64,000 nt of DNA from positions 85,856-149,855 of the forward strand of contig JAEELI010000017.1 in assembly GCA_016288795.1 (NCBI GenBank), written 5' to 3'. The DNA is from Bacillales bacterium (GTDB taxonomy: Bacteria > Bacillota_I > Bacilli_A > RF39 > UBA660). The translations under genes and the position numbers were made by a program. The notes below the pieces were generated by a model that saw nothing but the letters and a program-made list of their open reading frames with translations, had not been told where the DNA came from and ran no database searches. Of the stretch, positions 2,845 to 52,515 are shown one piece after another. Within the stretch, counting starts at the first letter, position 1. The number at the start of each line of letters is the position of its first letter.

Positions 2845-4356
2845 ATGGCTATAGAAAAATATATTAATGATACTTATGACATGGTTTTCGACCCAATCCC
2901 ATCTTATCCGGGTATTTGGACCTTTAAAGCTGAAAATTTAGCTAAGAATGCCATAAAACAAGATGGTAAAAATTTATTTCAAGAATACTATGCCAAATAC
3001 TATGCAGAATTAAATAAAACATTCAAATATTTGAGCATTTTAGAAAATGGTTTTATTAGTTCATCTAATTATTTTTTAGAATTTTTATCAAATAATAACA
3101 ATAATCGTATTGGTAGAAATCTTAATTTTAATAAAGTTAAGTTTTTTATGGCTTTAGAAGGTTTATTGAATGATGAAATAGATAGGCATGGAAAAACTAA
3201 TGAAGAACATAGAATGATGATAAGAAACTTAGCAGAACATCTAGACGATAATTATGAAGCATTAAACTCGTTCTATTCTGAGGCCATGCGTCATAAAAAA
3301 GAGATTATTAAAGATATATTAGATAATCAAATTCAATCTTCCTATTATGATGTAGCTTTGAAAGATTATGAGCAACACAATTTAAGTGTTGATTTTTCTC
3401 AATACATAAAAAAATTATATGATATCATAGATGATTTCCAAACTGGCTTATTAAAACTAGAAGATTATTTTGATAGAAACTTGGATGTTTCTGAATTATA
3501 CAAATGTTTTGATCCAGATAGATTTTATCTATTATTTGGAGTAATTATATATGAACATAATCTAGAATCGGAAAAAAGAAATAAAAAATTAGCTAATAAT
3601 TTTAATTATTTAAGAGAATATTTTCTGAAAGTTCAAGAAGTTTATAAAGAAGATAAAAGATATAATCCAACTGTTCTTTATGAATGGAAAGATGGCAAAA
3701 AAGAAAGAATAAGTCAAAGAGAATTAGAACGTAGATATTTAGAAATGAAACAAAGACATCCAGAAGAAAAAGAAGTGATTTTGCCAACTGTAGATAACAG
3801 TGATTATTATAAAAATATTGATTTAATAGAAAAAATAGAGAAAATATATGATGATGATATTAAAGTGAATTGGGAATTTTTACCAGCAGGAGAAGGTATT
3901 AAGAAAAGTGATAATAGAGAATCCTCAGTTCAAAGAGATAAAAAAGTAATAAGTGTAAATGATGTTAATTTAAGAATAGAAATAATGGAACATTCAGGAT
4001 TCATTGGCAAGCCAATTAAAGGTAAATCATCATTTTCTAATTATTATGCTTTTATTTATCCAAATGGAAAAGTAATACTAGAAAAGTTTTGGGAAAATGA
4101 AAATGAATTAATACCATCTGTTAACAATGCTACTTATGTAATGACAATAGATCATTTTATGGAAATGAGTAAGATGGCAAAAATAGATTTAATAGAATAT
4201 ATGAAAAAATTTCCAGATATGGGGATGAAAAGAATATTTCATACATCAATAGATAATTGGCAAAAGAATCTATATAAAGAAATAAATGGTAGTTATAGAA
4301 TAGATGATGCCATTAGTTTTATTAATAGTTTGAGGAGTGAGTCTTTAGATGATTAA
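2845..4356 (+). CDS. hypothetical protein, 503 aa, no recognisable domain
   Basis: long uninterrupted ORF with RBS-like GAAGGTG upstream; cytoplasmic (no signal/TM); no motif I can assign. Confidence 0.5.
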   Translation: MAIEKYINDTYDMVFDPIPSYPGIWTFKAENLAKNAIKQDGKNLFQEYYAKYYAELNKTFKYLSILENGFISSSNYFLEFLSNNNNNRIGRNLNFNKVKFFMALEGLLNDEIDRHGKTNEEHRMMIRNLAEHLDDNYEALNSFYSEAMRHKKEIIKDILDNQIQSSYYDVALKDYEQHNLSVDFSQYIKKLYDIIDDFQTGLLKLEDYFDRNLDVSELYKCFDPDRFYLLFGVIIYEHNLESEKRNKKLANNFNYLREYFLKVQEVYKEDKRYNPTVLYEWKDGKKERISQRELERRYLEMKQRHPEEKEVILPTVDNSDYYKNIDLIEKIEKIYDDDIKVNWEFLPAGEGIKKSDNRESSVQRDKKVISVNDVNLRIEIMEHSGFIGKPIKGKSSFSNYYAFIYPNGKVILEKFWENENELIPSVNNATYVMTIDHFMEMSKMAKIDLIEYMKKFPDMGMKRIFHTSIDNWQKNLYKEINGSYRIDDAISFINSLRSESLDD

Positions 4357-4822
4357 TAATGGTATGTTTATAAGATTATTAGAATGTATTAATAATGATA
4401 GAGAAGCTTTTGATTTATTAGTTAAGGCGGATAATACTTTGGGATTAGATATGACTACCGAAGATATTATTAATTATTTGGAGTTTACTAATGTTAATTC
4501 TTTATTATCTAAAGAATTAACTAGTCATATCATTATAACTGAAGGAGATATATTAAGTGTTTTAAAAATAGTTCATGATATAGTTAGTTACAGAGGAGAT
4601 TATATTCTATTTATTAATGAGGATAATGCTGGCACAATTACATATTTAGTAAATAAATCTAATGATATATATGGTGAATATAATTTAGATGTTAAGATTA
4701 ATATTGATTATAGTGCTAATTATAATAGATATGTAGATTCTTCTGTAGATATAATAGGTAGTGAAATATTTGTTAAGACAGCATCTAAAGATTTTAATAA
4801 TCCTAATTTAATAATAGTGTAA
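4349..4822 (+). CDS. hypothetical protein, 157 aa, translationally coupled to upstream ORF
   Basis: ATG overlaps upstream TAA (ATGATTAATAATGG); no recognisable domain. Confidence 0.45.
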   Translation: MINNGMFIRLLECINNDREAFDLLVKADNTLGLDMTTEDIINYLEFTNVNSLLSKELTSHIIITEGDILSVLKIVHDIVSYRGDYILFINEDNAGTITYLVNKSNDIYGEYNLDVKINIDYSANYNRYVDSSVDIIGSEIFVKTASKDFNNPNLIIV

Positions 4823-4898: not shown

Positions 4899-5627
4899 AT
4901 GTTTGTTGGAGAAGATCCAATTCATATTAATGCAGAAAAAGGAAGTATTGCTGAACTTGTTTTAATGCCAGGAGATCCTTTAAGAGCTAAATACATTGCT
5001 GAAAACTTCTTAACTGACGCTAAAGAAGTATGTAATTTAAGAAATATGTTAGGTTATACTGGAATTTATAAAGGAGTAAAAGTATCAGTTATTGGTTCAG
5101 GCATGGGAATGCCTAGTATGGGAATTTATTCTTGGGAACTATACCATTATTTCAATGTTAAAAAAATAATCAGAATAGGAACTTGTGGAGTAGTTAGTCC
5201 TGAAGTTAATGTTCCAGAATTAATACTTGCTGAAAAAGCCTATAGCGAATCTAACTTCGCTTGGACTTTTGATAATTATGAAGGTCATATTACATATCCA
5301 TCTAAAGAATTAAATGATATTATTTATGCGAAAAGTAAAGAACTAGGTCTTAAGATACATGTTGGAGATGTAACAACAATGGATGTTTTTGGACCATATA
5401 TAGATTATGATAGAGTTCTAGATAGAATGCCTAAAGACTTAAAAGTTATTGGGGAAGAAATGGAAGCATATGGTTTGTTTCATATAGCTAAACATTTCAA
5501 TCGTGAAGCATCATGTATTTTAACTGCAGTTGATTCTAAATTTAGTGATGTAGTTCTAAGTGGTGAAGAAAGACAAAGTAGTTTAAATGATATGATTACT
5601 TTAGCTTTAGAATCTATTATACAATAA
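4899..5627 (+). CDS. deoD: purine nucleoside phosphorylase, DeoD type
   Basis: PNP family-1 signature region GSGMGMPSMGIY, length 242 aa, GGAG RBS. Confidence 0.8.
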   Translation: MFVGEDPIHINAEKGSIAELVLMPGDPLRAKYIAENFLTDAKEVCNLRNMLGYTGIYKGVKVSVIGSGMGMPSMGIYSWELYHYFNVKKIIRIGTCGVVSPEVNVPELILAEKAYSESNFAWTFDNYEGHITYPSKELNDIIYAKSKELGLKIHVGDVTTMDVFGPYIDYDRVLDRMPKDLKVIGEEMEAYGLFHIAKHFNREASCILTAVDSKFSDVVLSGEERQSSLNDMITLALESIIQ

Positions 5628-5985
5628 ACTTATGACGATTCGGTAAGTTAAGAGAGATAAAGAATTCTTTAGTCTCTCTTTTTAAATGACCAATTTTACC
5701 AATTAATTCACTATCTAAAGGCTTTCGATAATGATTTATCTCCAAGAAAAGCAATTGCCACTCTAGATATAAATCATAATTAATTTGTTCTATTTTATGT
5801 AAAAGTTTATGACTAGTTCTGGATAGAATAGCGCCATTATCTACAGATTCAATGCCCCCATTTCTTTTTTCTAATATATGATGATAGGAAACATAATTCT
5901 TTTGAGTAATTTTATATCCCATCCAATCAGTTTTAGGATTTCCATATATCCTCAACATATCTTCCATAATTTGTCTATTTTTCAT
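5617..5985 (-). CDS. small HNH endonuclease-family protein
   Basis: YHHI...NGG...N...L.RTSHKLLH arrangement resembles HNH nuclease core (His-Asn-His). Confidence 0.5.
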   Translation of the reverse strand: MKNRQIMEDMLRIYGNPKTDWMGYKITQKNYVSYHHILEKRNGGIESVDNGAILSRTSHKLLHKIEQINYDLYLEWQLLFLEINHYRKPLDSELIGKIGHLKRETKEFFISLNLPNRHKFIV

Positions 5986-7499: not shown

Positions 7500-7730
7500 A
7501 ATTTTTAAGGCGGAACAAGACAAGTAAATTAAAATAGTTTTAAGAGAGTTAGTGATTGGTGAAAACTAATAAATGATGTTTAATTTATATCACTTGGGAG
7601 CTAATTATTTGAAATATAGTAAAATAATTCGTTGATGGCGTTAACATATAGAGATGAATAATTCATGAATTAAGGTGGTACCACGGGTTTACTCGTCCTT
7701 AAGTTATGAATTTTTTTAATTTTTAGAAGG
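7500..7730 (+). promoter_or_regulatory. T-box riboswitch leader of ileS
   Basis: Stem I element AGAGAGTTAGTGATTGGTGAAAACTAATAAATG; T-box sequence AATTAAGGTGGTACCACGG at ~7669-7687 followed by U-rich terminator. Confidence 0.75.
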
Positions 7731-10887: not shown

Positions 10888-11799
10888 ATGAAAGATAAAA
10901 GAGTAGTATTTATGGGAACACCAGAATTTGCTTTAGAGCCATTAAAACTACTAATTGAAAAAACTAATGTAGTTTTAGTTGTAACTAAAAAAGATGCTCC
11001 TGTAGGAAGGAAAAAGATTCTTTCGCCTACACCTGTAAAGAAATTAGCTTTAGATAATAATATTCCGGTGTTTACTCCGGATTCTATAAAAAAAGAATAT
11101 CAAAAAGTTATAGATTATAAACCTGATATTATTATAACTTGTGCTTATGGAAAAATAATTCCTAAAGAATTAATTGATTATCCCAAATATGGTTGCATAA
11201 ATATTCATGCTTCATTACTTCCAAGTTATAGAGGGGCTGCTCCAATGCAATGGGCTCTAATAAATGGAGAAAAAGAAACAGGGATTACTCTTATGTTTAT
11301 GGATGAAACTATGGATACTGGTGATATTATTGGGACTATTAAATATAAAATAGAAGATAGTGATGATATAGGAATATTACATGATAAATTAAGTATATTA
11401 GGAAAAGAATTATTAGATAAAAATCTCAATGATTTATTAACTAATAATGTTAAAAGAATAAAACAAGATAATGAAAAAGCAACATATGCTCCAATGATAA
11501 CTAGAGAAATGGAAGAATTAGATTTTAATAATGAGGGAATAAATATAATTAACAAAATTAAAGCATTTAGTCCATGGCCTTTAGTTAAAACATCAATTTT
11601 AAATGAAGAGGTAAAAATAATAAAGGCTCATTATGAAAAGAAAAAAAGTGAAATAAACAAAGTATATTGTGACAAAAATTCTTTAGGAATCGGTTGTTTA
11701 GATGGTATAATTTATTTAGATATTATTAAACCAGTAGGTAAAAATAGTATGAATATTAAAGATTATCTAAATGGCAAAAAGGGTGATTTAAATGGATAA
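10888..11799 (+). CDS. fmt: methionyl-tRNA formyltransferase
   Basis: N-terminal MGTPEFA and formyltransferase core HASLLP motifs; 303 aa. Confidence 0.85.
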   Translation: MKDKRVVFMGTPEFALEPLKLLIEKTNVVLVVTKKDAPVGRKKILSPTPVKKLALDNNIPVFTPDSIKKEYQKVIDYKPDIIITCAYGKIIPKELIDYPKYGCINIHASLLPSYRGAAPMQWALINGEKETGITLMFMDETMDTGDIIGTIKYKIEDSDDIGILHDKLSILGKELLDKNLNDLLTNNVKRIKQDNEKATYAPMITREMEELDFNNEGINIINKIKAFSPWPLVKTSILNEEVKIIKAHYEKKKSEINKVYCDKNSLGIGCLDGIIYLDIIKPVGKNSMNIKDYLNGKKGDLNG

Positions 11800-12436
11800 T
11801 GATCGTTTTAATGCTTTAATAAGATTTGGTTTATGGATAGCATTTATTGTGGTTTTAGTAGTTATAGCTAGAACATCTCCACAAGTGAAAAAAGAACCAA
11901 TTATTAGTCCTGAGGTAGAAGAGAAAGAAGAAAAAACTGATTTATCTTTAGAAGAGATTTTAAATAACATAAACAATAATTATAGTTACGAATATACTAT
12001 TAGAATTAAAAACTTAGAATATACATATGTTGGAACTAAAATGTTAGATTCTAATGGAAATAATAAAGAGTATGGATTTAGAACAATAAAAAAAGAGAAT
12101 GCTACTGATAGTGATTATTTTGAATACTTTATAGATAATAATTGGACTTATGAAGTTAAAAATGGTGGTTTAGATAAAATAGATAATTCTAAAATATATA
12201 ATGGTATTAATGCTGATAACATAGACTTAAATAAAATAAAAGAGAGTATATTAGATATAGAATATACTCAAAATGATAAAGAATACACATATAATTTAGA
12301 TAAAAAAACCATTGTTATAATAGTCGAAGAAAATAACATCTTTAGTGTTAAAATAGAAGATTCAACAGGAACTTATGATTTAGTATTTAATGATATTAAT
12401 AATATAAAAGAAGTTAATTATAAAAAAGATAATTAA
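11792..12436 (+). CDS. membrane-anchored hypothetical protein (N-terminal TM, Asn/Lys-rich extracellular part)
   Basis: overlaps fmt stop; single N-terminal TM helix; no motif. Confidence 0.4.
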   Translation: MDNDRFNALIRFGLWIAFIVVLVVIARTSPQVKKEPIISPEVEEKEEKTDLSLEEILNNINNNYSYEYTIRIKNLEYTYVGTKMLDSNGNNKEYGFRTIKKENATDSDYFEYFIDNNWTYEVKNGGLDKIDNSKIYNGINADNIDLNKIKESILDIEYTQNDKEYTYNLDKKTIVIIVEENNIFSVKIEDSTGTYDLVFNDINNIKEVNYKKDN

Positions 12437-12443
12437 TTTAGTT

Positions 12444-12935
12444 TTAATTAAATTTAACAGTTATATATTTATTTACAGTGTATAATTCCTGAACGCTTCT
12501 TATTATTTGATTAGCTAAAGAATTATCATGTTTATTTGAGGCAATGACAATACTAATAGTATTGTCTTTTATTTTCACAAAAGAATCTAAACCGTGTTTA
12601 TTCTTAATAGTCATTTTAATTTTATTTTCTTCTGAAGAATTATCATTTAATTTTTGCATATCATCATATGCTTTATTCTTTTCTTCTAGAGAAGTCTCAG
12701 AATTTAATAATACATCTTGATATTCTTCTAATAGAGTCTCTCTTTCTTCTTCTTTTTCTACTTCCAATGCAACCAATTCATCAGATTCACTAATTTCAAT
12801 TACTTCTTTAGATAAATTATCACTTTCAGTTTTAAGAACTTTGGCTGCTTCGTCCCCAATACTAAGATAATAAAGTCCTAGTATAAGAATTAAAGAAAAA
12901 AGAGTTACAAACCATAGATTTTGTTTATTTATCAT
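12444..12935 (-). CDS. membrane-anchored acidic coiled protein, hypothetical
   Basis: N-terminal TM then Glu-rich segment; divergent from bacteriocin ABC transporter. Confidence 0.4.
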   Translation of the reverse strand: MINKQNLWFVTLFSLILILGLYYLSIGDEAAKVLKTESDNLSKEVIEISESDELVALEVEKEEERETLLEEYQDVLLNSETSLEEKNKAYDDMQKLNDNSSEENKIKMTIKNKHGLDSFVKIKDNTISIVIASNKHDNSLANQIIRSVQELYTVNKYITVKFN

Positions 12936-13047
12936 TATTATTTCTCCTAGTCTAATAAATAGTATGATTTTTTTTAAAAAAAATTACATTCAAAAAAAGG
13001 AAATTAACCTCAAGCATGCAAACATTAATAGTGAAGGGAGGAAAAGG

Positions 13048-15117
13048 ATGAAAAAAATAAAGCCTATTTTGCAAAGAGATTTAAAAGATTGTGGTGTTTG
13101 CTCAATGGAGTGGATAATTGAATACTATGATGGTTATGTTTCGTTGGAAAAATTAAGAGAAGATACTTGCACAAGTATCAACGGAACAACAGCTTATCAT
13201 ATAGTTGAAGCCTTTAAAAAGTGGGGATTTGATTCAGTGGGAGTTTTGGTTAATGATTTATTATCGCCCAGTGTTAAGTTTCCTTGCATTGCCCATTTGT
13301 CTTTAAAAAATGGTTTAGAACATTTTGTCGTTATCAAGGAGATATCTAAAAACACAATATATATAATGGATCCAGGTGTTGGCGATATCAAATGGACAAT
13401 CAAGTATTTTTCGGAATTGTGGACTGGACATCTCATAATGGCATATCCAAGAGAAAAGATTATTAAAATGGAAAAAGAAATACATATTAGTGATTTATTT
13501 ATCAAAATTATTAGAAACGAAAAAAGTCTTGTTAAAAAAGTGATAGCCACTAGTATGATTTGGACTATTTTGTTAATTATATCAAGCTATTATTTAAAAA
13601 TAGCAAGTGCTTTATTAACAGAAAATTCTTTATTATTAAAAATAATTATTATAATCTTTGGGATAGTAATTATTATTAAAGTTTGGTCTTTATTTGTTCG
13701 ATCTTATTATGAAAATCATTTAAGCAATTTGGTTGATACTTATATTTATCCAGAGTTTATTCGGCATCTTTTTTTCCTTCCTTTAAAAAGTATCAAGAGT
13801 AGAACTACTGGGGAAATAATTACTAGAGTAAGTGATTTATCAAATATAAAAAGCTTATTCTCTGATATTTTTGTGACAGTTGTATTGGACTCATTAATGA
13901 TACTTATATCCGGTATTATTTTATTAACTATTAATACAAAGTTATTTGCGATATTAATAATATTTATAATTATTTATTCCTTAATTGGGATAATTGTTAG
14001 CAAGATAATGTTTAAAAAAATAATGGCTAATATCAGCTATCAAACAGATTTTAATGGTTTCTTAGTTGAAGCAATTGAAATGTTTGAAAGTGTTAAAAAC
14101 TTAAATTGTTCAGATATTATTTTAAATGTTATAGAAAATAAACTATCAAAGTATTTATTAAGTAATTATGAGTTTATTAATTTTTTTAACAAAAGTAATT
14201 TTGTTAAAGAGTCATTATTAGAATTATGTCTATTTTTAATTAATTCTTTAGGCTTATGGTTAGTTTATTCTCAAAAACTCGCTATAATTGATTTGTTTAC
14301 TTTTAATATAATTATTTCATATTGTTTAGATCCTGTGAAAAATATTATAAACATGTTACCAAAGTATAATTATATAAAAGCAACATTTAAGAAAATCGAA
14401 GAGTTTATCGAATTAGAAGAAGAAAAAATTAATTCTAATAGTGTGATAGATGTTCAAGGGGATATTGTCTTTAGTAATGTAGGTTATTCCTATAATAATT
14501 ATGATTATTTAATAAATGATTGTAATTTAACAATAAAAAAAGGAAGTCATGTTTTATTAAATGGTCCTTCAGGTATAGGAAAATCTACTATATGTAAACT
14601 TATTTATAAAGAAATGGAACCTACTAAAGGAAATATAATGATTGGAAACAATAATACAAAAGATTTGGATATGACTAGTATTAGAAATAGTGTTTTGTAT
14701 ATTGGACAAAATGAAGAGATATTTACAGGTAGTATTAGAGATAATATTGTCTTAAATAGGAAAATATCTGAAAATGAATTTCAAACAATTTGTGATTTGT
14801 GTGAAATTGAAGAGATAGTTTCAAAAAAAGAAATGCGCTTTAATTCTTTAATTGATCCATCTTCCAAAACTATATCCGGCGGTGAGAAACAAAGAATAGT
14901 TTTAGCAAGAGGGTTACTTAAAAGAGCCAATATTATAATTTTAGATGAAGCTCTTTCAGAAGTGGATGAAATGTTAGAAACAAAGATTATTGGTCAACTT
15001 AGGAAACATTTTCAAGACAAAACGATTATTTATATTTCTCATAAGAATCAAATTAATAACTTTAATGACACAATTAATTTAGGAGTTAAAAATGAATTAT
15101 TACAAAATAAATTATGA
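13048..15117 (+). CDS. bacteriocin-processing ABC transporter with N-terminal C39 peptidase domain (double-glycine leader cleavage/export)
   Basis: C39 catalytic Cys context QRDLKDCGVCSM; six TM region; Walker A LNGPSGIGKST, signature ISGGEKQRIVLAR, Walker B IIILDEA; start moved to ATG 13048 after GAAGGGAGG RBS. Confidence 0.85.
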   Translation: MKKIKPILQRDLKDCGVCSMEWIIEYYDGYVSLEKLREDTCTSINGTTAYHIVEAFKKWGFDSVGVLVNDLLSPSVKFPCIAHLSLKNGLEHFVVIKEISKNTIYIMDPGVGDIKWTIKYFSELWTGHLIMAYPREKIIKMEKEIHISDLFIKIIRNEKSLVKKVIATSMIWTILLIISSYYLKIASALLTENSLLLKIIIIIFGIVIIIKVWSLFVRSYYENHLSNLVDTYIYPEFIRHLFFLPLKSIKSRTTGEIITRVSDLSNIKSLFSDIFVTVVLDSLMILISGIILLTINTKLFAILIIFIIIYSLIGIIVSKIMFKKIMANISYQTDFNGFLVEAIEMFESVKNLNCSDIILNVIENKLSKYLLSNYEFINFFNKSNFVKESLLELCLFLINSLGLWLVYSQKLAIIDLFTFNIIISYCLDPVKNIINMLPKYNYIKATFKKIEEFIELEEEKINSNSVIDVQGDIVFSNVGYSYNNYDYLINDCNLTIKKGSHVLLNGPSGIGKSTICKLIYKEMEPTKGNIMIGNNNTKDLDMTSIRNSVLYIGQNEEIFTGSIRDNIVLNRKISENEFQTICDLCEIEEIVSKKEMRFNSLIDPSSKTISGGEKQRIVLARGLLKRANIIILDEALSEVDEMLETKIIGQLRKHFQDKTIIYISHKNQINNFNDTINLGVKNELLQNKL

Positions 15118-15502
15118 TAAATTACTTAATATTAGACAAAAGAAATATTTTTTAGGACTAATGATTTTAATAATGATATTTACTGTTTCTATAATAATAA
15201 TATCTTTGATTGAATTTGATAGTTGGAATGATGTCTATGGTATATATAGCAATAATAGATTACATATAAAGATAAATAAAGCACTTTCTGATGTAGTTAA
15301 AAACAATAAATCTTTAGTGTTCAATCAAAAAATTGTTAATTATAAAATAGATAAATATTTAAATGATGAAATTATAGATAATTATATATATCAAAATATT
15401 GATTTAATTGTTGATAATAATTTTGCGGAAGATGAAATTGTCTTAGTATCTTTTAAAAGTAAAAAGACACTAGGGAAATATATTTTTGAATTATTTAAAT
15501 GA
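15092..15502 (+). CDS. short membrane protein coupled to the C39-ABC gene (truncated accessory-like or immunity candidate)
   Basis: overlaps ABC stop; cytoplasmic N-term + one TM (FLGLMILIMIFTVSIIIISLI) as in LcnD/ComB N-termini but only 136 aa. Confidence 0.4.
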   Translation: MNYYKINYDKLLNIRQKKYFLGLMILIMIFTVSIIIISLIEFDSWNDVYGIYSNNRLHIKINKALSDVVKNNKSLVFNQKIVNYKIDKYLNDEIIDNYIYQNIDLIVDNNFAEDEIVLVSFKSKKTLGKYIFELFK

Positions 15503-15511
15503 GGAGGTAAT

Positions 15512-15652
15512 GTGAGTAAGTTAGATAATGAGGAAATGTTAAATGTTAAAGGTGGTGGAGCGGCCTTATTAACAGCTTTTGAAGTGACAAGTATTTTTAT
15601 ATTTGTTATGGGGTTTATAAAAGGTTATAAGAAAGCCCCTAGATGTCCATAA
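15512..15652 (+). CDS. double-glycine-leader bacteriocin precursor 1 (46 aa, GTG start; not in ORF track)
   Basis: GAGGAGG RBS; leader MSKLDNEEMLNVKGG with hydrophobics at -4/-7/-12/-15 and EE at -8/-9; mature GAALLTAFEVTSIFIFVMGFIKGYKKAPRCP. Confidence 0.7.
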   Translation: MSKLDNEEMLNVKGGGAALLTAFEVTSIFIFVMGFIKGYKKAPRCP

Positions 15653-15661
15653 GGAGGTAAT

Positions 15662-15796
15662 ATGTTAGATAACGAAGAATTATTAACTATTACTGGTGGT
15701 GCTTTTAAATTAAAACTTATCAGTATAGTTGGTGGATTTGTTGTATTTCTAATCGGGGTTGTAGATGGAATTATAAATCCTAAAAAATGTAATTAA
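15662..15796 (+). CDS. double-glycine-leader bacteriocin precursor 2 (44 aa; not in ORF track)
   Basis: AAGGAGG RBS; leader MLDNEELLTITGG; mature AFKLKLISIVGGFVVFLIGVVDGIINPKKCN. Confidence 0.75.
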   Translation: MLDNEELLTITGGAFKLKLISIVGGFVVFLIGVVDGIINPKKCN

Positions 15797-15806
15797 GGAG
15801 GTATTT

Positions 15807-15968
15807 ATGTTAAGTAGTGAAGAATTGCTAGATATTAAAGGTGGATCATGGACTGCAACATTGTTAAATGCTGTTTCTCGTCTAATTACTACAATGTTGG
15901 GTTTAGGCCAAGTTTTTGGTTCATCTGTCAGAAGAGTAGTAACAGGAAAAACATGTAAAATTAATTAA
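15807..15968 (+). CDS. double-glycine-leader bacteriocin precursor 3 (53 aa; not in ORF track)
   Basis: AAGGAGG RBS; leader MLSSEELLDIKGG; mature SWTATLLNAVSRLITTMLGLGQVFGSSVRRVVTGKTCKIN. Confidence 0.75.
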   Translation: MLSSEELLDIKGGSWTATLLNAVSRLITTMLGLGQVFGSSVRRVVTGKTCKIN

Positions 15969-15997
15969 TCGTAATTTTACAAAACTTTGCTTTTTTG

Positions 15998-16026
15998 TTG
16001 TCAAATCAATTTGCTAGTGTTATAAT
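15998..16026 (+). promoter_or_regulatory. sigma-A-type promoter upstream of rpsU
   Basis: TTGTCA, 17-nt spacer, extended -10 TGtTATAAT. Confidence 0.5.
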
Positions 16027-16056
16027 ATCTTCAGTTAAAGGAAGGGAGGGCGAATT

Positions 16057-16242
16057 ATGACAAAGGTTGTTGTTCAAAACGGCAATATTGATGGTGCACT
16101 AAAGAAATTTAAAGCTAAGGTTGCAAGAAGCGGAGTCCCTTCAGAACTTAAGAAAAGAAAATTCCATGTTAAACCTGGAGTTGAAAGAAGAATAAAAAAA
16201 GAAGAAGGAATTAAAAATTCTCATAAAAAAAATCATAATTAA
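16057..16242 (+). CDS. rpsU: 30S ribosomal protein S21
   Basis: 61 aa basic protein, GAGGG RBS, conserved S21 N-terminus and position next to yqeY. Confidence 0.9.
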   Translation: MTKVVVQNGNIDGALKKFKAKVARSGVPSELKKRKFHVKPGVERRIKKEEGIKNSHKKNHN

Positions 16243-20635: not shown

Positions 20636-21919
20636 ATGAAACGGAAATTAATTCTACTATTATTATTTTTATTAATTGGTATTTTTACATTTACTTTAGC
20701 ATTTGCTCCCAAACGTATTGAACTCTTTGGTAAGATTTTTTTATCTAATTCTACAGAGTTAAAATTGAATGATGTAAATGTTAATTCCATTTCTAATTTA
20801 ACTAAAGAATTGGTTAATTTTACGGATTTAAAAAAAGTTGATTTCGGTAAAAATTATATTAAAATTGATGATTACAATGAATTAATTAAAAAGTATCCTA
20901 AAGTCCATTTTAATGCTTTAAAAATTTATAATATTTATAATGAAGATATTAAAGAAGATGCTTTAGCTATAGATTTTAATAATACTAAAGTAGATGATAA
21001 ATTAATAGATTATTTAGTATTGTTTCCCAAATTAAAAAAAGTTAATTTATCTAATCAAGAACTATCTTTAGATGAAGAATTAGATTTAATGAATAGGTAT
21101 TCCAACATCGATTTTTTGTTTAATGTTCCCATTGGAAGCAAAAAAGTTTTATCTAACGTCTCCAAATTAGAATTAGAAAAAGAAACTATAGATGATGTTG
21201 ATTCATTTTATAAATCATTAAAAGTTTTATCTAAATTAACTTATTTAAAATTAGGGTATTCTAATTTAAGTAATGATGTCCTAGGGAAAATGCAAAAGGA
21301 TTTTCCTAACATAAAAATATCTTGGACAATTAAAATTGGAGTTTGGCATATTAATACTGATGATGTTGCATTTTCTGTGTTAATATCAAATTTTCCTTAT
21401 AAGAGATTAACTTCAGCAGATTTAGAATTTTTAAAATATTGCCCAGACTTACAAGCTTTAGATTTAGGACATCAAAGGATAACTGATTTAAATGTAATTG
21501 TTGATAACTTGCCAAATTTGAGAGTATTAATATTAGCTGATAATAAAATAAGTGATTTGACACCATTGAAAAAATTACAACATTTACATTATTTAGAACT
21601 ATTTATTAATGATATAACCGATATAAGTCCTTTGGAAGCTAATAAAGAACTAGTGGATGTTAATTTATGCTTTAATAGAATTACTTCTATCGAATCTTTA
21701 GAGAATTTACCAAAACTAGAAAGAGTTTGGTTAGTGGGAACCAGAGTTCCAGATAAAATAGCTAATGATTTTACTTATAGACATAAATCAATTGAATTAG
21801 TTCGGCATGGAATTGGTTCAACCGGAAATGGTTGGAGAACACATGAACGTTATGATAGTATGATAGATATGTTTCATAAGCGAAACTATATTAGTGAAAA
21901 CTTTAGTAAATTTGGTTAG
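20636..21919 (+). CDS. secreted leucine-rich-repeat (internalin-like LRR) protein
   Basis: signal peptide MKRKLILLLLFLLIGIFTFTLAFA; repeated LxxLxLxxNxIxDLxPL units (LQALDLGHQRITDLN..LRVLILADNKISDLTPL..). Confidence 0.6.
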   Translation: MKRKLILLLLFLLIGIFTFTLAFAPKRIELFGKIFLSNSTELKLNDVNVNSISNLTKELVNFTDLKKVDFGKNYIKIDDYNELIKKYPKVHFNALKIYNIYNEDIKEDALAIDFNNTKVDDKLIDYLVLFPKLKKVNLSNQELSLDEELDLMNRYSNIDFLFNVPIGSKKVLSNVSKLELEKETIDDVDSFYKSLKVLSKLTYLKLGYSNLSNDVLGKMQKDFPNIKISWTIKIGVWHINTDDVAFSVLISNFPYKRLTSADLEFLKYCPDLQALDLGHQRITDLNVIVDNLPNLRVLILADNKISDLTPLKKLQHLHYLELFINDITDISPLEANKELVDVNLCFNRITSIESLENLPKLERVWLVGTRVPDKIANDFTYRHKSIELVRHGIGSTGNGWRTHERYDSMIDMFHKRNYISENFSKFG

Positions 21920-27773: not shown

Positions 27774-27850
27774 GTTCTTGTAGCTTAGTTGGATAAAGCG
27801 GATGCCTCCGACGCATCAGATTGAGGGTTCAAATCCCTCCAAGAACACCA
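27774..27850 (+). tRNA. tRNA-Arg (anticodon CCG), CCA encoded
   Basis: cloverleaf folded by hand: acceptor GTTCTTG/CAAGAAC, D-stem GCTT/AAGC, anticodon stem GATGC/GCATC with loop CTCCGAC, T-arm GAGGG-TTCAAAT-CCCTC. Confidence 0.85.
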
Positions 27851-52438: not shown

Positions 52439-52515
52439 GGCGCTGTAGCTCAGCTGGCTAGAGCATCCGGTTCATACCCGGCAGGTCGAGAGTTCGAATC
52501 TCCCCGGCGCTACCA
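52439..52515 (+). tRNA. tRNA-Met (anticodon CAT), elongator type, CCA encoded
   Basis: hand fold: D-arm GCTC-AGCTGGCTA-GAGC, anticodon loop TTCATAC, T-loop TTCGAAT, G1:U72 so not initiator; Ile2-lysidine tRNA not excluded. Confidence 0.8.

Follow-up and report, generated by a model that had tools for sequence, protein, structure and literature searches.

Within a 64,000-nucleotide stretch of DNA from a Bacillales bacterium (contig JAEELI010000017.1; the whole stretch is called the window here), the region at positions 13048–15968 encodes an ATP-binding cassette (ABC) exporter with a C39 peptidase domain, a 136-residue protein and three short peptides with double-glycine (GG) leaders. This region is probably a member of a new family of class IIb-like two-peptide bacteriocins, in which an alpha and a beta peptide would be cleaved and exported by the adjacent exporter, and we infer a killing activity for the pair based on the following: an alpha gene followed by a beta gene was present in 11 of 11 distinct loci; a GxxxG motif is invariant in both peptide families; TIGR03949, a model for class IIb, is matched by nine of the ten alpha members; both small and cationic, the mature peptides are either hydrophobic or amphipathic; the exporter has the full architecture of a peptidase-containing ABC transporter (PCAT), and the leaders are of the GG type and resemble that of the PCAT substrate CtA; the accessory protein has a predicted barrel fold of the membrane fusion protein (MFP) type and is always coupled to the exporter; and the genes are under purifying selection and move as a unit with their own upstream AAAGGAAAT box. 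The module is operon-like and is made up of four gene types (exporter, mini-accessory, alpha and beta), to which the window adds an alpha-like paralogue.

The peptide precursors and their families

The peptide genes were found as the sequence-only reading of this DNA had described them, that is, as three back-to-back small genes with strong ribosome-binding sites and GG leaders, with a GGAGG sequence located 6–9 nucleotides 5′ of each of the three open reading frames (ORFs) and leaders of 13–15 residues with GG at the end. The first, pep1 (15512–15652, + strand; 46 residues), has a GTG start behind a GAGGAGG ribosome-binding site and consists of the leader MSKLDNEEMLNVKGG and a 31-residue mature part. 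The second, pep2 (15662–15796, + strand; 44 residues), is the alpha peptide, with the leader MLDNEELLTITGG and a 31-residue mature part ending in ...IGVVDGIINPKKCN, and the third, pep3 (15807–15968, + strand; 53 residues), is the beta peptide, with the leader MLSSEELLDIKGG and a 40-residue, strongly cationic mature part ending in ...LGQVFGSSVRRVVTGKTCKIN. The mature parts of pep1 and pep2 are hydrophobic and that of pep3 is amphipathic, in agreement with the earlier description, and the net charges of the three are +3, +3 and +5, with isoelectric points of 9.6–11.7. The locus had also been called unannotated. The small genes are real, but all five module proteins were already in the protein collection as NCBI-sourced, unnamed gene products, and they are therefore unnamed rather than uncalled.

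The leaders (13, 13 and 15 residues) have hydrophobic residues at −4, −7 and −12, Glu at −8 and −9 and a conserved GG, and the leader model TIGR01847 scored 11.4 bits relative to a cut-off of 15.7. When the PDB was searched with peptide profiles, the sole match was the leader of CtA, the substrate of PCAT1. Orthologues of pep2 and pep3 occur in the same order in 10 of 10 other loci and are under purifying selection, and a chance origin of these ORFs was excluded on those grounds.

In related loci the alpha orthologues (pep2-like) are 45–47 residues long and the beta orthologues (pep3-like) 51–55 residues, and the two genes are adjacent, on the same strand and 8–17 nucleotides apart in all 11 distinct loci. 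The alpha alignment has an invariant G32xxxG36 (10 of 10 sequences, pep1 included), an invariant C43 and a nearly invariant P40, with the consensus ...IGGAIVFVIGVIDGLINPKKCN. The beta alignment has an invariant G34xxxG38 (9 of 9), together with invariant R42R43 and C50, and the consensus ...LLNSVSR...LGQxVGSSIRRxxSKxxCKIx. Used alone as a query against a set of 5.8 billion proteins, pep3 retrieved only itself, and the beta family surfaced by profile only: the profile search identified 168 clusters at E ≤ 1, and among the 120 of these that were listed, all had E < 1e-15, were 47–59 residues long and unnamed and had no Pfam match, with many ending exactly at the Cys. Many beta sequences carry a nearly identical ...LGRTVGSSIRRIYSKNYC.

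Each chain has a single invariant Cys, 0–4 residues from the C-terminus, which could bridge the two chains as a disulfide or be necessary in its free thiol form. A CaaX-like C-terminal processing signal (CKIS/CKIN) was considered for this position and ruled out, given that between 0 and 4 residues follow the Cys, depending on the sequence.

The three mature regions had been described as dissimilar to one another, which holds for alpha versus beta but not for pep1 versus pep2. The mature part of pep1 scored 11.3 bits with an alpha-mature hidden Markov model (HMM) that was built without the window sequences, a score that none of 1000 shuffled sequences reached (maximum 9.2); pep3 gave no score with the same model. 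In addition, pep1 retains the GxxxG motif (as GFIKG) and the C-terminal Cys, and it was not found in any of the 10 other distinct loci. Because its score was above those of all 1000 shuffles, pep1 is assigned, at the level of sequence comparison, as a window-specific, diverged paralogue of the alpha peptide. Of the two alternatives offered earlier, a multi-component bacteriocin or a set of distinct bacteriocins, the first fits best, with an alpha/beta pair and GxxxG in both chains, and the peptides are not three unrelated entities.

Relative to curated bacteriocin models, pep2 scored 20.6 bits with TIGR03949 (class IIb, lactobin A/cerein 7B), 0.9 bit short of the cut-off of 21.5, and pep1 and pep3 scored 17.5 and 12.4 bits with the same model. 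Nine of the ten members of the alpha family match TIGR03949, with a best E of 9.4e-6, and the beta family had essentially no match among the curated models. With NF038034/NF038035 (the lactococcin G/enterocin 1071 families) the best score was 22.1 bits (pep2, NF038034; cut-off 37), and with PF10439 pep2 scored 16.1 bits (cut-off 27.1).

The exporter and its accessory protein

The exporter gene (13048–15117, + strand) is preceded by the ribosome-binding site GAAGGGAGG and encodes a PCAT of 689 residues, composed of an N-terminal C39 cysteine protease, a six-helix ABC membrane domain and a nucleotide-binding domain. Pfam identified Peptidase_C39 (5e-30), ABC_membrane and ABC_tran, which, combined with the catalytic Cys, His and Asp, is the architecture that defines a PCAT. 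The protein aligned over its full length to PCAT1 (4ry2, E 1e-92) and ComA (8hf4, E 1e-84). Consistent with the earlier claim of a complete peptidase domain, the oxyanion Gln and the catalytic Cys (DCGVCS), His (EHFVV) and Asp (IMDPG) all aligned with the C39 site of PCAT1, and the Walker A, signature and Walker B motifs are intact. Its score with TIGR01193 (bacteriocin_ABC) was 385 bits, below the cut-off of 523.85, and we therefore placed it in a divergent PCAT branch. The third-best NCBIfam model was NF045998, a PCAT family of Mycoplasma (Mbov_0121), which matched over the full length at 302 bits relative to a cut-off of 500. A longer, 717-residue reading of the exporter ORF from 12964 was rejected in favor of the start at 13048 because it has no ribosome-binding site and the homologues are 684–686 residues long.

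The gene for the 136-residue protein (15092–15502, + strand) had been left outside the system in the sequence-only reading. It is instead the accessory gene of the module, being coupled to the exporter gene in all loci examined and having a predicted barrel fold, and the 26-nucleotide overlap of its start with the 3′ end of the exporter gene suggests translational coupling. No Pfam or NCBIfam model matched the protein. In a confident AlphaFold2 model (pLDDT 83.7) an N-terminal transmembrane helix (residues 2–39) is followed by six strands and two short helices, which form a six-stranded MFP-type beta-barrel with no coiled-coil hairpin, and the predicted fold leaves no space for an alpha-hairpin or a lipoyl domain. 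MFPs of the HlyD family combine a beta-barrel with an alpha-helical hairpin and a lipoyl domain, and the 136-residue protein falls outside that definition. Accessory proteins of the usual HlyD/LcnD/ComB type are roughly 450 residues long.

A word-indexed search identified 25 homologues of the 136-residue protein, nearly all of 133–140 residues, and an exhaustive HMMER search with their alignment identified 230 representatives at E ≤ 1e-3; among the 150 of these that were listed, most were ~130–156 residues long, a few were shorter fragments and none was a long HlyD-type protein. Pfam matched none of the distant members, and the family profile gave nothing meaningful against the PDB and Pfam, including no sequence-level match to any HlyD-type entry. 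Based on the modelled barrel fold, the short length throughout the family and the lack of long HlyD-type relatives, the protein is read as a putative minimal MFP-like accessory of the exporter from an unnamed family. A thioredoxin-like accessory (of the PedC type) was also considered and ruled out, given that the protein contains no Cys and has the MFP barrel fold.

A distant relationship to Mycoplasma was apparent for this protein family as well as for the exporter. NF045999 (the MAG1140 family protein of Mycoplasma agalactiae) was matched by 11 of 22 accessory members at E ≤ 1 over nearly the whole of its 126-position profile, with a best score of 29.9 bits, under the 35-bit cut-off, and with no match for the window's own 136-residue protein. 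The consecutive accession numbers of NF045998 and NF045999 suggest that the two Mycoplasma genes may adjoin each other. The literature retrieved with the Mycoplasma locus tags contained no published function for either family, only VFDB-style table entries.

Distribution, synteny and selection

In the species-level genome set the sole close relative was L001, a metagenome-assembled genome labelled 'Bacilli bacterium', in which the gene order is exporter, 137-residue gene, two GG peptides, rpsU, yqeY and yabP. L001 was also the one true relative in a scan of genome contigs, the other 14 matches being generic ABC ATPases. Ten further distinct loci (L021, L024, L025, L028, L031, L032, L034, L036, L037, in which alpha is truncated, and L038) were derived from the contexts of eight homologues of the 137-residue or beta families and from two metagenome loci, the only ones contributed by the metagenome scan. 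The exporter, mini-accessory, alpha and beta genes were in fixed order in all 10.

The surroundings of the module differ among lineages. In the window clade (L021, L024, L025, L031 and L032) the region is syntenic from the SpoIIIAH-like gene through recO, and rpsU follows beta; in L028 the upstream neighbors are a GerA operon; in L034 a 292-residue protein follows beta; and in L038–L041 the four-gene set is located behind polC, with a 249-residue protein after it. The 249-residue (L038) and 292-residue (L034) proteins share no homology, lack a Pfam match and have no copy in the window, and because they are unrelated we concluded that the module has no fifth gene. A functional link to the SpoIIIAH-like gene or the downstream sporulation genes (yabP and yqfD) was ruled out since the module occurs without them in L038–L041; their proximity is attributed to lineage synteny. 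The earlier description of a housekeeping setting with no sign of an island was borne out by base composition, with the GC content and skew of the locus being the same as those of its flanks. Rather than a single insertion among housekeeping genes, the locus is a clade-conserved module that has another position in L038.

Divergence was determined for the window proteins relative to five relatives, with the ratio of nonsynonymous to synonymous substitution rates (dN/dS) given as a median. Within the module, identities were 54–63% for the exporter (dN/dS 0.25), 38–46% for the mini-accessory (0.49), 55–63% for alpha (0.33) and 38–62% for beta (0.32). Among the neighboring proteins they were 89–93% for RpsU (0.09), 79–80% for Era (0.14), 72–74% for Fmt, 61–68% for YqeY (0.26) and 47–48% for YqfD (0.37). 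The divergence of the module is thus similar to that of core genes with moderate conservation, and the purifying selection (dN/dS 0.25–0.49) indicates that it is functional and not a relic. As judged from these comparisons, it is vertically inherited and conserved across the whole clade, and it is located elsewhere in the genome in another lineage.

Several additional observations were made on the loci themselves. Five NCBI assemblies of very large size (JAEEGF, JAEEGH, JAEEGI, JAEEGJ and JAEEGK) contain contigs of <1 kb (L016–L020, corresponding to window positions 15251–16224) that are 99.7–100% identical to the peptide region. In exact look-ups, pep3 was located only on 100%-identical contigs of <1 kb, and neither the exporter, with either start, nor pep1 gave a match. 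Both JAEEGF and JAEEGI also carry a further version of the module, diverged by 40% (L036 and L037), from which it follows that two related organisms coexist in those samples. In L037 (1820–4547, relative to L036:2037–2180) the alpha gene is 99% identical up to ...GLVNG and then gives way to foreign DNA with an HTH_36 protein, ParA and ParB, either because a mobile or plasmid-like element has entered the 3′ end of the alpha gene or because the assembly is chimeric.

The upstream region

No sigma-70-type promoter was found in the 112-nucleotide spacer that precedes the exporter. When six orthologous spacers were aligned, a conserved AAAAAGGAAAT box and a conserved ribosome-binding site were apparent. 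In the window the AAAGGAAAT box is at 12996–13004 (+ strand), 43 nucleotides 5′ of the exporter start codon, and in all seven distinct loci, including L038 with its other genomic context, it lies 41–43 nucleotides 5′ of the exporter ATG. Across the window the motif shows no enrichment (6 observed versus 4 expected), and with no sigma-70-type promoter in the spacer its support comes from phylogenetic footprinting, on which basis the box probably serves the module as a promoter or regulatory element. The AAAGGAAAT sequence matches the sigma-H −35 consensus; a sigma-H promoter was nevertheless not supported, since a matching −10 (CGAAT) was present in L021 only. An A/T palindrome, TTTTTTnAAAAAA, is located at window positions 12955–12990, ~12–25 nucleotides 5′ of the AAAGGAAAT box, and is also present in L021, L025, L031, L032 and L038, where it may act as an operator or UP-like element for the module. 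At the other end, no terminator was found after pep3, and read-through into rpsU is consequently possible.

Weighing of the bacteriocin reading and its alternatives

If the peptides are a two-peptide bacteriocin, the precursors would be made with leaders of 13–15 residues, the C39 domain of the exporter, with its Gln, Cys, His and Asp intact, would cut after the GG, and the ABC core would export the cationic peptides of 31–40 residues. The single-pass 136-residue protein, with its MFP-type beta-barrel outside the membrane, would aid export and may add self-protection. Outside the cell the hydrophobic alpha and amphipathic beta peptides would pair via their invariant GxxxG motifs and act jointly on a target that is the membrane or a membrane protein, in the way of class IIb bacteriocins. 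The invariant Cys near the C-terminus of each chain might connect alpha with beta or have to stay a free thiol, and pep1 would be an extra alpha variant.

In class IIb systems the genes for the two peptides are adjacent and always share their operon with the immunity gene, the GG leaders are 15–30 residues long, a dedicated ABC transporter and an accessory protein are present, and GxxxG motifs occur in every two-peptide bacteriocin that has been characterized, with AxxxA and SxxxS also accepted by the definition (PMC2850506). The module has the adjacent peptide pair, GxxxG in both chains and a PCAT with an accessory-like gene, the latter of a miniature MFP type. Five observations weigh against assigning it to this class. 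The conserved module contains no immunity gene in any of the 11 loci, whereas the class IIb review places one always in the operon (PMC2850506); the absence of a recognizable immunity gene, and of a histidine kinase or response regulator, had been pointed out from the sequence and was confirmed in the loci examined. The 13-residue leaders are shorter than the class IIb range (PMC2850506), the lower limit of which is just reached by the 15-residue leader. The matches of the window peptides to curated bacteriocin models are all below the cut-offs. The peptides are syntenic across the clade and, at 55–63% (alpha) and 38–62% (beta) identity compared with 61–68% for YqeY and 47–48% for YqfD, their conservation is more like that of a core function than of an arms-race toxin. 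Finally, searches of the literature with the peptide motifs and assembly accessions returned no functional information and no paper naming these sequences.

One alternative, which we regard as somewhat unlikely, is that the exported alpha/beta pair serves the producer itself, as a membrane or envelope heterodimer or as a developmental or stationary-phase factor in these spore-formers, with the PCAT and mini-accessory as its dedicated route. Speaking for it are the lack of an immunity gene (0 of 11 loci), the fixed position and vertical inheritance of the module with a divergence similar to that of neighboring core genes, the strong conservation of mature beta across >100 clusters, the one invariant Cys per chain, and the lack of a terminator between beta and rpsU. 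There is also the related PCAT/MAG1140-like pair in Mycoplasma, organisms not known for bacteriocins. PCATs with developmental roles do exist, an example being HetC in Nostoc (PMC10986499). However, the GG leader, the GxxxG motif in both chains and the cationic amphipathic or hydrophobic character of the peptides all fit class IIb too, and the adjacency of the SpoIIIAH-like gene, yabP and yqfD is synteny, as judged by the module behind polC in L038. Moreover, the window-specific duplication of alpha that gave pep1 is diversification of the kind seen in toxin loci, and there is no known precedent for such a housekeeping peptide pair.

A more elaborate form of this alternative has the module as a vertically inherited, immunity-less secretion unit related to Mycoplasma Mbov_0121/MAG1140 that delivers a disulfide-linked alpha/beta heterodimer with a self-directed envelope, stationary-phase or sporulation role, and has the one-domain adaptor of ~135 residues as a previously unrecognized minimal class of ABC-exporter partner; taken as a whole, we consider this unlikely. 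It is improbable to a further degree that the peptides are three independent one-peptide bacteriocins (class IId-type) sharing one exporter. Each gene does have its own ribosome-binding site, and pep1 is present in this genome only, such that the number of peptides can vary, but beta directly follows alpha in each of the 11 distinct loci, across two genomic contexts, the GxxxG motif and single Cys are invariant in both chains, as in an obligate pair, and pep1 is an alpha paralogue rather than a third type.

Secreted signaling pheromones of the ComC/BlpC type are very improbable; ComC-like pheromones had been named earlier as what homology might show the peptides to be. PCATs do export such pheromones, ComA is the second-best structural relative of the exporter and pep2 has a weak ComC-family match (PF03047, 13 bits, E 0.09), but that match is under the 20.4 cut-off and covers the leader only. 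In none of the loci does the module, or the DNA within ~10 kb of it, encode a histidine kinase, a response regulator or an Rgg/PlcR-type receptor. The mature peptides (31–40 residues, hydrophobic and with GxxxG) are unlike typical pheromones of 8–25 residues, and a strictly conserved pair of two different peptides is foreign to such systems.

Neighboring features in the window

The module had been placed in the core fmt–rpsU region, and those coordinates hold, but two genes separate fmt (10888–11799) from the exporter: one for a 214-residue membrane protein (11792–12436) and the divergent SpoIIIAH-like gene (12444–12935, − strand; Pfam 2.4e-12). The SpoIIIAH-like gene stands alone, outside any spoIIIA operon, and is 63–74% identical across relatives. 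On its own strand, the spacer at 12936–12990 has a conserved TCATAAnaTTTA element upstream of the gene, which resembles the CATAnnnT −10 of sporulation sigma factors. In L021, L025, L031 and L032 a CDP-alcohol phosphatidyltransferase gene (238–241 residues) directly precedes the SpoIIIAH-like gene; it is absent at window positions 12436–12444, and tblastn found no copy within the 64 kb.

Further upstream on the + strand is ileS with a T-box leader (7504–7703; 115.5 bits). Downstream of pep3 there is a strong sigma-70-type promoter at 15998–16026 (TTGTCA-17-TATAAT with TG), and the genes that follow are, in order, rpsU, yqeY, yabP/yqfC, yqfD, vanZ, ybeY, dgkA and era. Between era and recO the window has a gene for a 427-residue leucine-rich-repeat protein (20636–21919, + strand), where L021, L024, L025 and L031 have nothing and L032 has an unrelated-looking 469-residue gene; right behind recO, L024 and L031 carry other unknown genes. 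In a region that is syntenic otherwise, the era–recO interval seems to be a spot where insertions vary. Elsewhere in the window, tRNA genes were identified at 27774–27847 and 52439–52512, and three ORFs at 2845–4822 and 5617–5985 (503, 157 and 122 residues, the last of these on the − strand) are without a Pfam match at E ≤ 1e-5 and sit among ThiI, PGA_cap, DUF4186, PNP_UDP_1 and GlmM-like genes.

Significance and comparison with known systems

Were the bacteriocin reading correct, a PCAT branch, a family of mini-MFP-type accessories (at least 230 clusters at 50% identity) and the alpha and beta families (at least 168 beta clusters at 90% identity) would be defined together as one widespread module of uncultured low-GC gut-type bacteria. 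The alpha and beta peptides would be candidate new two-peptide antimicrobials. The class IIb review called the role of accessory proteins for Gram-positive PCATs unresolved (PMC2850506), and the 136-residue protein would offer a minimal natural adaptor with which to study it. A conserved, immunity-less and Cys-bearing pair also raises the question of how producers escape self-killing, as well as that of non-antagonistic roles for some 'bacteriocin-like' loci, and only if the non-antagonistic reading were true would the result be a conceptual surprise. In addition, the distant link to the Mycoplasma Mbov_0121 and MAG1140 families would provide a first functional hypothesis for those genes.

GG peptides served by a PCAT, and two-peptide bacteriocins, are a type of system that is already well known, whereas Pfam, NCBIfam and the searchable literature contain no description of these peptide families, the mini-accessory family or the immunity-less, core-like organization. 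The closest likeness is to the class IIb bacteriocins of Gram-positive bacteria (such as lactococcin G, plantaricin EF/JK and enterocin 1071), which likewise have two adjacent peptide genes, GG leaders, a C39-ABC exporter with an accessory protein, and cationic, helical or hydrophobic mature peptides of 30–40 residues with GxxxG in both chains. The alpha family lies at the edge of TIGR03949. Unlike those systems, the module has no immunity gene, an accessory of ~135 residues, leaders of 13–15 residues, one invariant Cys near each C-terminus and a beta family that fits no curated model, and its locus is core-like and syntenic across the clade rather than strain-variable or plasmid-borne.

With regard to the exporter, PCAT1 of Clostridium (Hungateiclostridium) thermocellum (4ry2, 7s5j; substrate CtA) and ComA of Streptococcus pneumoniae share its domain order and catalytic C39 residues, and the leader resembles that of CtA (ELTDEELMEMTGG against LNNEEMLEVKGG); by comparison, the cargo here is different and the exporter is paired with a dedicated mini-accessory protein. 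That protein lacks the alpha-helical hairpin, lipoyl and membrane-proximal domains of the membrane fusion proteins and periplasmic adaptors HlyD, MacA, AcrA and Spr0693 and is about one-third of their usual size. The Mycoplasma pair NF045998 (Mbov_0121) and NF045999 (MAG1140) likewise combines a PCAT with a protein of ~130 residues in low-GC Bacilli/Mollicutes lineages, a likeness for which neither score reaches its curated cut-off (500 and 35).

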